Translations under genes and position numbers: made by a program
Notes under the pieces: generated by a model
What the model saw: the letters and a program-made list of their open reading frames with translations, nothing else
Databases searched by the model: none
What the model was told of the DNA's origin: nothing
NCBI GenBank assembly: GCA_963787835.1
Contig: CAWBEI010000002.1
Span: forward strand, 1,024,001 to 1,088,000
Reading direction: 5' to 3'
Length of the DNA: 64,000 bases
Origin: Ignavibacteriota bacterium
Lineage (GTDB): Bacteria > Bacteroidota > Ignavibacteria > Palsa-1295
In this document: piece by piece, positions 822 to 57,897 of the stretch
Position numbering within the stretch: position 1 is the first letter of the stretch
How the letters are laid out: every line of letters starts with the position of its first letter

Positions 822-931
822 GATGAATGATGAATTAAGAAGGATGAAAAAAATTGGAGTTACATGATAAACGTTCAAAAATCTCAATGCTTGTAATGAA
901 ACTCATCATTCATCATTCATAATTCATCATT
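822..931. repeat. Inverted tandem-heptamer element (GATGAAT)n ... (ATTCATC)n
   Basis: gatgaat gatgaat taagaag gatgaa at 822-848; tcatc attcatc attcata attcatc att at 903-931. Confidence 0.8.
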
Positions 932-938
932 GCCCCAA

Positions 939-1916
939 ATGCCCCGTACTCTTATCACCGGCGGAGCCGGATTTCTCGGCAGCCATCTCTGTGATCGCTT
1001 TGTAGCGGAAGGACACGAAGTTATCTGCATGGATAACCTCTGCACCGGCTCGATGGAGAACATCGCGCATTTGCTCGGACAGCCAAATTTCCGGTTCATT
1101 CACTACAATGTGACGGAGTTCGTGTATGTCGAAGGCCCGCTCGATTACATTTTGCATTTTGCATCGCCGGCCAGCCCGATCGATTATCTCAAGTTGCCGA
1201 TCCAAACGCTGAAAGTTGGTTCTTTGGGAACCCACAAGGCACTCGGACTTGCCAAAGCGAAAAATGCGCGATTTCTGCTTGCTTCAACCAGCGAGACATA
1301 CGGTGATCCCGCCGAACACCCACAACGCGAAACCTATTGGGGAAATGTAAACCCCATCGGCATTCGCGGCGTGTATGATGAAGCCAAACGATTTGCCGAA
1401 GCGCTCACGATGGCGTATCACCGGTATCATGGTGTCGATACGCGCATTATTCGCATTTTCAATACGTATGGTGAGCGCATGCGCCTGCATGATGGCCGCG
1501 CGATCCCAGCTTTTATGTCTCAGGCCCTCAGGAGCGAACCAATAACTGTATTTGGCGATGGTTCCCAAACCCGATCGGTGTGTTATGTCAGCGATCTCAT
1601 CGAAGGAATTTACCGGTTGTTGATGTCGGATTATAATTTACCAGTGAATATTGGCAATCCTGATGAAGTGACCATGCTTCAGCTTGCGGAGGAGATTCTC
1701 GCGATGATACCGGAGAGCAAGAGCAAGATCATATTCGAATCGCTTCCTGAAGACGACCCCAAAATTCGCCAGCCGGATATTGCGCTTGCACGTTCTCTCT
1801 TTGGATGGGAGCCGAAAGTGCAGCGCAGCGAAGGATTGAAACGGACGCTGGAATATTTTCGCGAAGCGATAACCCACGAAATGAAACTTCTGGGGAACGT
1901 TCAACGCGATAGTTGA
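939..1916 (+). CDS. UDP-glucuronate decarboxylase (UDP-xylose synthase) family NAD-dependent epimerase/dehydratase
   Basis: [38 protein letters not shown]; adjacent to ugd. Confidence 0.92.
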
Positions 1917-1992
1917 ATTACGCTGTTTCTTCGAGGGGTTTTTAGCCGACTTTTGTACCGTGTATTCTTTTTTTTCATTCACATAAATTACC

Positions 1993-2886
1993 ATGATCAA
2001 ACACTTTCAAACACTTACATTTGCTATTGCTTTGCTTATAGGGCTTAGCTTTGAATTACATGCACAAACACGCTCAGTCGGCGGGCACGCAATCGTGCTT
2101 GACGACGGTTCTGGCCATACGCTTACCATTCTGCCTTCGCTTATGACGACCGATCAGATCTTTACATTTCCAGCAACTACAAGTTACACGCCTGGCAGTG
2201 TGCTTTTCGCGGATGCTAATGGCGAGATCAATCAGGATAATGCGAAGTTATTCTGGGATAACACTAACTTTCGCCTGGGCATCGGCAACGCTTCACCGTT
2301 GTATCCGCTCGACGTGACAGGAGCTGCACGGATCACGGGCGCAGTCACGCTTGGAACCGCGCTCGCTACATCGAGCGGTGGAACTGGTACTTCAACAGCA
2401 CCCACGCAAAATGGTGTGATATACGGGGCAAGCAGTTCAGCATACGCTTCGACAGCCGCTGGCTCGACGGGGCAAGTACTGACCGTATCGGGTGGAGGCC
2501 AGCCAGCATGGGCAGCGTCATCCGGGTCTATGCTGATCGCCCTGAATTCAGGTGGAAACCTTGTCGATTTTGATTTCATGACTACGGGTGGTGAGGTCTC
2601 CTCCGAGAGCTCGGGACAGTACGTTGTTACGCAGAGTGGGACGCTCCAGAATCTCTATGTTCATATTACCGCCGCGCCGGGCGCTGGCAATGGGCGCTAT
2701 TTTTATGTGCGCAAAAATGGAGTGAACACAGCGTTAGGCCTCACAATGGGTAGTAACACGACCAGTGCCAGCGATGTGTCGGACAAAGTGTCAGTTTCGG
2801 CGGGTGATCTGATATCGCTCGAGACCATCACCAACAACACGCCACCGGCTGCAACGGGAATTGCGAGCTTCGAGATTGCTTACTGA
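1993..2886 (+). CDS. Secreted Gly/Thr/Ser-rich protein with tail-fibre-like beta repeats
   Basis: Signal peptide (LHA-Q); LFWDNTNFRLGIGNASPLYPLDVTG and GQVLTVSGGGQPAW motifs. Confidence 0.65.
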   Translation: MIKHFQTLTFAIALLIGLSFELHAQTRSVGGHAIVLDDGSGHTLTILPSLMTTDQIFTFPATTSYTPGSVLFADANGEINQDNAKLFWDNTNFRLGIGNASPLYPLDVTGAARITGAVTLGTALATSSGGTGTSTAPTQNGVIYGASSSAYASTAAGSTGQVLTVSGGGQPAWAASSGSMLIALNSGGNLVDFDFMTTGGEVSSESSGQYVVTQSGTLQNLYVHITAAPGAGNGRYFYVRKNGVNTALGLTMGSNTTSASDVSDKVSVSAGDLISLETITNNTPPAATGIASFEIAY

Positions 2887-2910
2887 GCCGAGTAGAGGGA
2901 GCAAAACATA

Positions 2911-3066
2911 AGCCGATCCCCAATTCGCCAGCACGATATTTCGCTTGCGCAAGCACTCTTGGTTAAGAGACAAGAGTGCAGCGCAACGAAAGGAGTGAAG
3001 CGGACGCTGGAATATTTCAATTACGCAATTGCCCGGAAGGAAGAACTTGCGTGTACCTCTGTTTAA
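2911..3066 (+). pseudogene. Degenerate second copy of the 3' end of the upstream epimerase gene
   Basis: Aligns with 1751-1900; cggacgctggaatattt is identical (1842-1858 vs 3001-3017); translates piecewise as DP.IRQHDISLA...VQRNEGVKRTLEYF. Confidence 0.85.
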
Positions 3067-3139
3067 GAATACAGAAGTTCGCCTCCTCTCTTAAAATCTC
3101 CGTAACTTTGCTTTTCTGATAACAGATCTAGTAAAGCGC

Positions 3140-55697: not shown

Positions 55698-55796
55698 GAT
55701 TCTCTCTCGTTTAGGACGTATTTTTGTACGAATCCAATCGGATTACCCACCGTATAAGCCGCGTGGGCGGTCTTCCACTTTTAAAGAACATTCTCT

Positions 55797-56804
55797 ATGG
55801 CAATCAATGTAGGCATTAACGGTTTTGGGCGTATCGGCAGGTTAGTTCTTCGCAGGGCATTTGAATTCGGTGGATTCAATTTTGTTGGCATTAACGACTT
55901 GACCGATGCCAAAACGCTCGGACATTTGCTGAAATACGATTCCGTCCACGGTAAATTTAATGGCGAGATCACAGTGGATGGGAATTGCCTGATCGTAAAT
56001 GGCGACCGCATCGAAATTACGTGCGAGAAAGATCCTTCGAAATTGCCGTGGGGTACATTAAGTACTGATATTGTAATTGAATCGACCGGCCATTTTGCCG
56101 ACCGTGCCGGATGCCAAAAACACATCGATGCCGGCGCGAAAAAAGTAATTCTCACCGTTCCGCCGAAAGGGGATAAGCTGGATAAAATGATAGTCCTCGG
56201 CGTGAATGATTCCGATCTCAAACCGGAGGATAAACTCGTTTCGAATGCTTCCTGCACCACAAATTGCCTTGCGCCGATGGTGAAAGTGTTGAATGACGCA
56301 TTTGGCATCGAGCAGGGATTTATGACGACGGTCCATTCTTACACGAACGATCAGAATCTCCTCGATCTTCCCCATAAGGACTTGCGCCGCGCTCGCGCAG
56401 CCGCGCTTAGCGTCATTCCCACAACGACGGGCGCTGCGCGGGCTATCGGGCAGATCATTCCCGAACTCAAAGGCAAGATCGATGGCACATCGCTCCGAGT
56501 TCCAACGCCGACAGGCTCTATCACCGATTTCGTAGCCCAGCTGAAACTCGAAGTAACCATTGAAGAAGTGAACGCTGCCTACAAAGCTGCTGCCAATGGC
56601 CCGATGAAAAATATTCTCGCCTATACCGAAGACCCCATCGTAACGGCGGACATCGTCCACGATCCACATTCCTGCATCTTTGATTCCCAGATGACGATGA
56701 CAATGGGCAAGACCGTCAAGGTCTTCGGCTGGTACGATAACGAATGGGGTTATTCCTGCCGCGTGGTCGATCTGGCAGTCAAAATGGATCAGTTAGGATA
56801 CTAA
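55797..56804 (+). CDS. gap: Glyceraldehyde-3-phosphate dehydrogenase
   Basis: [28 protein letters not shown]. Confidence 0.97.
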
Positions 56805-56807
56805 TTA

Positions 56808-56945
56808 ACATGTCATCCTGAGCGAAGCAAGACGTAGCGACAGCGGAGTCTTGCGCAGTCGAAGGATCTTTGGTTAATTGTCTGAGATCCTTCGACTCCG
56901 TTCTTCCTCCCTTTGGTCGGAAGAACTTCGCTCAGGATGACATGT
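56808..56945. repeat. Branched palindromic element (REP/RPE/MITE-like)
   Basis: 20-bp outer inverted repeat acatgtcatcctgagcgaag; 13-bp inner inverted repeat agtcgaaggatct; two side hairpins. Confidence 0.88.
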
Positions 56946-56947
56946 AA

Positions 56948-57826
56948 TTAAGCACGACGGAGCCTTGGGTAATAAAACCCAAGCATCCATCCTCCCACGG
57001 CGATCATGGCGATCGAGATCCACTGCGCCATTGAGAGTCCCCAGTAGAGTGGATTGATGCGAATGAATTCGATGAGCAATCGTTCCACTCCCATGACCAC
57101 GAGTGTGATCGAAAACACTTTACCAAGTTCACCATCGAATTTCTTGCGGTTTGACCAAATAAAGTAAAATGCAATAATGCAAAACAGCGTTTCGTACACA
57201 GGTGCGGGATGAACGGTAACAACTTCATCGAATCGCGAAATGCGTTCACCCATTTGATCGTGTCCAACGGTAATGGAAGCAAGCGAATCATAATGCAACT
57301 GCGCCCGCTCTAATGGGTGCGTTTTGAAATAGTCGATGAGCGTGTAGGTCGGTTTTGCAGTTCCTTGTGGATAGGACATGGCCCAGGGCAGCGAGGATGG
57401 AATTCCGTAATCGCCATCGCCGGCAAGCTGGCAGCCAATACGGCCAATGCCATACGCAAGCAGCACCACGGGCGCGATCATATCGGCAAACATCAAAAAT
57501 TTTAATCCTTTACTTTTGACGTAGAAATAGATCCATATCGTAGCGACGATAAATCCGCCATAAAATGTGAGACCAGCCGGAGAAAAAAGCTGACCTCTTG
57601 GATCGTGTATAAAATCAGACCAGTTTTCAAGAATCGAAAATAGCTTGCTTCCCGCGACCCCTCCGATAAGGCAGATGATGGTTATTTGTCCGGCTATTCG
57701 TTCGTCGAGGCCGCGTCGCTTCAGTTCGACCGTGAAAAAATAGCCTGCAACAAGAAATGCCGTGGCCATCATGAGGCCAAAGCTATAGAGCGTGATGGGG
57801 CCGATGTGAAATAGAACTGGGTGCAT
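56948..57826 (-). CDS. lgt: Prolipoprotein diacylglyceryl transferase
   Basis: MHPVLF, GLTFYGG, GRIGC, HPAPVYE, EFIR; ATG at 57826. Confidence 0.93.
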   Translation of the reverse strand: MHPVLFHIGPITLYSFGLMMATAFLVAGYFFTVELKRRGLDERIAGQITIICLIGGVAGSKLFSILENWSDFIHDPRGQLFSPAGLTFYGGFIVATIWIYFYVKSKGLKFLMFADMIAPVVLLAYGIGRIGCQLAGDGDYGIPSSLPWAMSYPQGTAKPTYTLIDYFKTHPLERAQLHYDSLASITVGHDQMGERISRFDEVVTVHPAPVYETLFCIIAFYFIWSNRKKFDGELGKVFSITLVVMGVERLLIEFIRINPLYWGLSMAQWISIAMIAVGGWMLGFYYPRLRRA

Positions 57827-57829
57827 AAC

Positions 57830-57897
57830 TGAATGATGAATTAAGAATGATGAATGATGAAGGGGAACGTTGCGTTCCTCAGCATTCATTATTCATC
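57830..57897. repeat. Inverted tandem-heptamer element (GATGAAT)n
   Basis: gaat gatgaat taagaat gatgaat gatgaa ... ggaacg/cgttcc ... attcatt attcatc. Confidence 0.75.

Follow-up and report, generated by a model that had tools for sequence, protein, structure and literature searches.

Tandem-heptamer hairpins at gene junctions of an Ignavibacteriota bacterium are probably empty relatives of four-helix-bundle gene cassettes

We analysed a 64,000-nucleotide stretch of the genome of an Ignavibacteriota bacterium (the window, G000:C2:1024001-1088000, within the 3.57-Mb, 98%-complete genome G000) that carries seven hairpins with arms made of tandem 7-nucleotide units. On our best reading these hairpins are empty relatives, living in operons, of the rRNA intervening sequences (IVS) that bear an open reading frame (ORF). 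The full cassette has a small four-helix-bundle gene between two mirror-image arrays of four to five heptamers. We estimate a probability of about 65% that the hairpins are such PF05635/TIGR02436 cassettes without the gene, with spread by recombination and persistence through RNA folding that puts the insert away both likely.

Results

Loaded and empty forms have common arms and common sites, and the state of a given junction varies among related species. G000 has four intact TIGR02436/PF05635 genes and a frameshifted one, and all five are framed by heptamer arms; a sixth, weak TIGR02436 match is without arms. The frameshifted cassette lies between tRNA-Ile and tRNA-Ala (G000:C6:65935-66384), and an intact gene maps to the same region in G009. 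Among 14 genomes of the same genus, 13 yielded cassettes (49 fetched of 53 full-length matches), and an inverted stem was present in 45 of the 49, with a median of 30 bp. A preliminary description of the window had mentioned similar arms around four-helix-bundle genes and around GxxExxY genes; the first association was confirmed in G000 and in the relatives, and the second failed, as all three GxxExxY genes of G000 have a different inverted repeat. Heptamer framing was likewise not found for DUF559 genes (0/2), for Y1 transposase loci (0/9, the nearest arm 305 nt off; the genome has 10 Y1 matches) or among five short GIY-YIG genes, bar a cassette with its own arms nested in one loop. Retro-mobility in cis was rejected, since no RVT_1 gene was matched in G000.

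The junctions of G000 that match the 49 loaded cassettes were loaded in 7 cases, held an empty heptamer hairpin in 12, were bare in 12 and held another palindrome or insert in 7; 11 could not be mapped. The 12 empty cases fall on seven sites, which are empty in G000 and loaded in relatives. Bare junctions measured 0-47 nt, several with a stop-start overlap. When both neighbours were found, the cassette was co-oriented with the operon in 39 of 42 cases. One empty hairpin (G000:C2:1313644-1313810) is a deletion derivative that retains the purine-rich arm (F; its complement is called R) and nine initial codons; the gene to which they belong is present at this site in G014 and G002.

Unit type was also found to go with protein clade. 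In a tree built from 52 proteins, with two mis-called rows left out and six proteins unlabelled, the nine unit classes, set by our own rule, needed 9 changes, as compared to 31.3 with shuffled labels, and none of 200 shuffles was as low. The units of the window have cognate protein clades in the genus. The nearest solved structures to the four-helix-bundle proteins are 2RLD and 2GSC, with five chains each.

The seven hairpins themselves were all found where the preliminary description had placed them. Their RNA, taken from the strand of the adjoining gene, folded at -22 to -44 kcal/mol (z -3.8 to -8.0); no shuffle out of 200 folded as well for six of them, and 2/200 did for the one at 57830. 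An inverted partner was found for nine of the ten lag-7 arrays in the window, which together represent six of the seven elements, and for none in 100 local shuffles; the element at 37631 is below the array threshold, yet has a perfect 23-nt inverted pair. Genome-wide we counted 246 lag-7 arrays, as compared to 6-21 at lags 4, 5, 8, 10, 11 and 13. The inverted partner of the purine-rich arrays (171 genome-wide) lies downstream in 62 cases and upstream in 7, and two Markov genomes contained no partnered purine-rich array. A vocabulary scan returned 238 arms in the genome and none in a Markov control of contig C2, with a tally of 74 short hairpins and 128 unpaired arms; 238 and 74 are lower bounds because the scan missed two of the seven window elements. 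Arm length is narrow, with four to five units in 204 of the 238 arms. The predicted enrichment over shuffled sequence was therefore borne out, and two details of the preliminary description had to be revised. The spacers, described as unique, do separate the arms but often belong to the stem on folding, and the rule that units begin with ART holds within the window but not genome-wide, as AAGTATG, AAAGATG, AAGGATG and GGTAAAG are common.

Mirroring of variants from arm to arm was marginal (0.92 vs 0.90, n=29, p 0.05). Stop codons in all three frames occurred in 177 of the 238 arms, below the control mean of 209, and three-frame stops were rejected as a design feature. Rfam covariance models, including Flavo-1 and Gut-1 (described as an orphan motif in PMC2864571), gave no match to the hairpins, only sub-threshold microRNA-hairpin matches and one tRNA.

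The F arm points away from gene ends on either strand. By their flanks the 74 hairpins are co-directional (57), divergent (9), convergent (5) or inside genes (3), where these classes and the distances to starts are approximate since gene starts came from a simple in-house caller. In 52 of the 57 co-directional cases the hairpin starts -20 to +16 nt from the upstream end. An arm lies within 12 nt of 30 of the 48 tRNA/tmRNA genes. On the 5' side 19 arms stop 5-11 nt short of the gene, and on the 3' side 18 start 3-9 nt beyond it; random intergenic positions reach such offsets in 0.3% of cases. A positional bias is thus present genome-wide at stops, starts and tRNA ends, as the preliminary description had anticipated for gene starts; the tRNA-end bias and the signal-peptide use reported below go beyond its claims. 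The GGCACC motif that belongs to a second dispersed element precedes 45 of the 128 unpaired arms; a further 42 adjoin a stop, a start or a tRNA end, and 41 are unexplained. GxxExxY-type arms and REP-like hairpins were also seen 5-12 nt from tRNA ends (for example at C3:416917, C2:1489103, C5:112372, C6:212896, C7:5289). The equal tRNA offsets of heptamer arms and other palindromes hint that both are placed by a common process. The labels REP-like and LptE-like, and the names actA to actG beyond the profile matches, are ones that we assume to apply.

Four of the hairpins lie in the operon of alternative complex III (ACIII, act genes) and cytochrome c oxidase (cox genes), and across 11-14 relatives these sites were bare or held the same unit, another unit, mixed arms, a solo arm or another palindrome family. 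In the sister genome G002 two of the four operon hairpins are absent and the remaining two have other units, and in G003 and G008 no array was detected anywhere in the operon. Arms have been copied as modules within the genome, as 54 distant arm pairs share an exact compound 30-mer (11.4 after shuffling of unit order, maximum 19), and among these are pairs that link tRNA flanks, gene junctions and the GGCACC element. The coxC-coxD junction is identical over 116 nt to that of G014, a non-sister genome, and synonymous identity is 24/27 on each side, as compared to 48-69% in the gene interiors. We read this as a recent short transfer. A rise in flank identity at the operon's element junctions was seen at coxC-coxD only.

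In 80 distant ACIII loci, heptamer hairpins were present in 12. At one of the 80 (L177:5400-5960, Acidobacteriota) actA is immediately preceded by a PF05635-like gene in hexamer-like arms; these inverted arms have units of about 6 nt, which shows that periods other than 7 occur. Two weaker matches, outside the operon genes, were seen at a second locus. In L107 the genes for cox subunits II and I are separated by a Y1-transposase-like gene that has inverted arms of its own, of a non-heptamer kind (L107:14930-15570), and the other junctions of that operon carry heptamer hairpins.

Several in-frame copies appear to have taken over predicted signal peptides. As purines dominate the first arm and pyrimidines the second, a copy read in frame is charged and then hydrophobic; the mean hydropathy of the translations was -0.89 for F strands and +0.95 for R strands, and 196 of the 238 R strands have an open frame. 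The AATTAAG-type empty hairpin at 30469..30557 (+ strand) starts 6 nt past the actD stop and gives the ATG, the basic n-region and the hydrophobic h-region of the predicted ActE lipoprotein signal peptide (26 residues, MKSKGLGFKLLLILNSSFLILNLASC; 30491..30568, + strand), whose n-region, h-region and lipobox were judged by eye, as were all signal peptides. A hairpin-derived predicted ActE signal occurs in 10 of 15 same-genus genomes, with at least three unit types. The ActE signals of G003, G004, G008 and G011 and of both outgroups are plain, as are those of the three deepest branches, so that the repeat rewrote a predicted signal that was already there. Within G000, signal-like leaders are encoded by 4 of the 74 hairpins and by three further R arms. 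Among distant ActE leaders 12 of 74 contain a lag-7 array, some of them, in Pyrinomonadaceae, as complete hairpins with unrelated units; heptamer hairpins unrelated to that of G000 also encode the predicted ActE lipoprotein signal in Acidobacteriota.

The other six window elements are also empty hairpins. An AATGATG-type copy (819..931, + strand) separates ugd (stop 813-815) from an NDP-sugar epimerase/decarboxylase gene (ATG 939). At this site a hairpin of the same type was found in G002 alone of 14 relatives; two of the other 13 have other palindromes after ugd and 11 have different upstream DNA. The UDP-glucose dehydrogenase gene at 1-815 is split by a frameshift near 400-440, either a sequencing error or a pseudogene. 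The AGTAACG-type copy at 24360..24442 (- strand) lies in the divergent gap upstream of actA and abuts the ATG (24359) of a minus-strand DUF2007 gene; arms occur at this site in G006, G014 and G005, the last with a differing unit. Just downstream of the actA stop/actB start overlap (25313-25317), a GATAGTG-type copy (25328..25417, + strand) is in frame in the ActB N-terminus. In 12 relatives the actA-actB site has other units, REP-like palindromes or nothing, and in L003 and L004 (G006 and G014) it is a REP-like palindrome, not a heptamer hairpin, that is in frame in the ActB N-terminus. A second AATTAAG-type copy (32322..32459, + strand), by actF and actG as named from position only, holds the upstream stop (32321-32323) in its first unit, and the next ATG (32463) follows 3 nt on. 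The AGTGCTG-type copy at 37631..37700 (+ strand) lies in the gap from the cox subunit III stop (37628-37630) to the subunit IV ATG (37707). Finally, a second AATGATG-type copy (57830..57897, - strand) lies in the divergent gap between a phosphorylase-family gene and lgt, the ATG of which (57826) is 3 nt from the hairpin; 5 of 14 relatives have a hairpin there, one with the same unit type.

All seven thus lie at or inside gene starts as first described, but five of them also start within 13 nt of an upstream stop, which makes them junction elements and not gene-start elements alone. The two at 24362 and 57830 lie between divergent genes, and two of the seven, in ActB and ActE, are translated in frame. 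None is in rRNA; all seven are at protein-gene junctions, and the member of the family that comes nearest to an rRNA location is the cassette between tRNA-Ile and tRNA-Ala. A PF05635/TIGR02436 gene is present in none of them, and was found only in loaded relatives.

The window also holds a copy of the second dispersed element (41330..41695, + strand), with a promoter-like TATATT at 41359, GGCACC direct repeats and only a two-unit arm, near 41489. The element is found at about 60 further places in G000, is non-coding, measures 170-330 nt and has a sigma-70-like promoter, GGCACC direct repeats as bounds and interchangeable modules. Copies hold one heptamer arm (of varying unit, 6-14 nt past GGCACC), a piece of a GxxExxY-type arm, or neither, and many of the solo arms of the genome sit in such copies. 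It had no Rfam match. Beside the window copy, directly after the cox operon, lies a fused type II restriction-modification-like methyltransferase gene (38565-41210). A 27-nt inverted pair between gapA and lgt (56801-56952) is of the same type as the one around a GIY-YIG gene at G000:C2:1256678. A sorting domain of type IX secretion was also detected, which indicates the Bacteroidota in a broad sense.

Discussion

We propose that a loaded cassette would land at a tight, usually co-transcribed junction, where the host promoter would express it. It would then decay in order, with the gene lost, then one arm, then everything, while recombination or gene conversion, with no dedicated transposase, may copy or exchange empty hairpins and single arms. 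The stem, some 25-35 bp long, would reunite the upstream end with the downstream start, so that the insert could be tolerated. In tRNA and rRNA precursors RNase III, the gene of which is present in G000, would cut the stem, by analogy with the Coxiella IVS. By analogy with Avd, the protein may be a pentamer that binds its own four to five heptamers, as Avd is pentameric and 2RLD and 2GSC are five-chained.

Several observations weigh against this proposal. The idea of empty, non-autonomous forms, already raised in the preliminary description, stands where empty and loaded forms alternate at orthologous junctions and in the one deletion derivative; none of the seven window sites was found loaded in the 11-14 relatives compared per site. 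A clear gene remnant was found in only 1 of the 74 loops, so a deletion origin is unprovable for most empties, and 128 of the 238 arms stand alone. For the arm class with the most members (ATGA units, 124 pattern matches) G000 lacks a gene of the cognate clade, and arm counts across the genus do not track the cognate clade of these units; the AAGAA pattern is matched as often by its reversed control. Co-inheritance alone would yield the agreement between clade and unit. Some relatives have mixed arms that are not complementary. Efficient cleavage by RNase III would destroy the in-frame ActB and ActE copies. The transfer tract is a single case, and the flanks of G006 are equally high (27/28 and 21/26) around a different element. 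An excess of G-U over A-C mismatches, as a sign of RNA-level selection, is not robust (80:53 with loose scoring, p 0.02; 39:30 and 32:33 with strict scoring), and we make no claim on it.

The hairpins could instead be host regulatory elements under selection that couple translation or mark tRNA processing, with the four-helix-bundle proteins as trans-acting, self-regulating factors. The tight spacing to stops, starts and tRNA ends would fit such a role, and so would the upstream stop that is often in the first unit, where a terminating ribosome could open the stem; a translational role has been proposed for the TAACTGA repeats (PMC4679880). We regard this as rather improbable, as sister genomes differ in which sites are occupied and by which unit type, G003 and G008 have an arrayless operon, other palindrome families occupy the same places, the strand asymmetry is not robust and the commonest class lacks a cognate gene. 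Neutral repeats, formed by slippage in place and mirrored by template switching, with deletion trimming them to the essential boundary and the gene merely riding in loops, seem to us very unlikely. Bacteria in general have an excess of heptamers, for which an origin by slippage has been proposed (cited in PMC4692102), rare variants are mirrored exactly in some arms, and other loop cargo such as the GIY-YIG cassette does occur. However, slippage leaves unexplained the fixed purine-first polarity and the four-to-five-unit length (204/238), the agreement of clade and unit, the exact compound arms at unrelated loci, and the framing of 5/5 PF05635 genes as compared to 0/3 GxxExxY, 0/2 DUF559 and 0/9 Y1 genes.

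We give similarly little credence to REPIN-like non-autonomous elements moved in trans by an HUH (Y1) transposase of the genome. The REPIN-RAYT system likewise combines many small hairpin doublets and singlets with a few gene-bearing master copies (PMC3116915), inverted extragenic doublets are found here too, and the genome has 10 Y1 matches. Here, however, the enclosed gene is not a transposase and no tyrosine transposase is flanked, with the nearest arm 305 nt from a Y1 gene. The arms are tandem heptamers with no sequence common to different unit types, and the sites cluster at tight junctions and at the ends of genes and tRNAs, whereas a random spread through extragenic space is reported for REPIN doublets.

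The gene-less cassettes that we favour are closest to published rRNA IVS. In Coxiella the IVS contains three heptamer repeats, at the first of which it is cleaved (PMC4990558). IVS with an S23p/PF05635 gene (Coxiella, Leptospira; PMC4990558) share with the present cassettes the protein family, terminal inverted repeats (IVS stem about 28 bp), tandem heptamers in the 5' arm and a deletion-prone gene, and the window hairpins show the long terminal-repeat stem and the 5'-arm tandem heptamers. They differ in that the cassettes described here occur outside rRNA genes, namely at mRNA junctions, next to tRNA genes and in the rRNA spacer, are mostly gene-less and have many coexisting unit types. RNA cleavage is known for IVS and is a prediction for the present cassettes.

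Intergenic heptamer repeats are also known; we take the cyanobacterial short tandemly repeated repetitive sequence (STRR) to be one. Heptamer repeats of GGGAATC were described in Xanthomonas/Nostoc (PMC4692102) and of TAACTGA in Beggiatoaceae/Bacteroidetes (PMC4679880), with few copies of a 7-nt unit, convergent pairs and the same polarity as here, the purine-rich strand after stops and its complement before starts. The arrays of the window and genome resemble such heptamer simple sequence repeats in being period-7 tandem, intergenic and of fixed polarity to gene ends. In the accounts consulted, those papers describe one unit per genome and link no gene family, and the term "four helix" is absent from the main texts of both, whereas here about ten units coexist and track four-helix-bundle clades.

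Avd is a pentameric barrel likened to S23p proteins, in which all five protomers bind an RNA stem-loop (bioRxiv 10.1101/2023.10.23.563531); our profile search did not reach Avd. A diversity-generating retroelement differs in that no RVT_1 match was found in G000, though the template repeat was not searched for. In the opa genes of Neisseria a pyrimidine-rich CTCTT coding repeat encodes part of the leader peptide (PMC3960869). That is a single phase-variable pentamer tract, whereas here a two-armed hairpin gives both halves of the predicted signal, in several unrelated genes. The Coxiella IVS heptamers and the TAACTGA and GGGAATC repeats mean that the observations are already published in part. 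A literature search over main texts, including few subscription journals, found nothing that unites the repeats, the gene family and operon junctions, or that describes signal-peptide use of a hairpin, and the unified family is new as far as searched.

As a tentative extension, which we think possible but on the whole doubtful, the cassettes may form an undescribed class of selfish element. The pentamers of each clade would recognise the heptamer of that clade, with roughly one unit for every subunit, in RNA or in single-stranded DNA, and would direct the copying of arms or whole cassettes, by host enzymes alone, to transcript boundaries such as stop codons, start codons and tRNA ends. Such an element would be the source of the heptamer excess and of ORF-bearing rRNA IVS, and would repeatedly give rise to signal peptides across phyla.

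For ActE, repeat DNA appears to have replaced an existing predicted export signal in the same gene in two phyla, with unrelated units. More generally, our reading would join the bacterial excess of 7-nt repeats, the orphan PF05635 pentamers and the rRNA intervening sequences in one testable unit, for which the table of clades and units supplies the cognate and non-cognate pairs of a binding assay.

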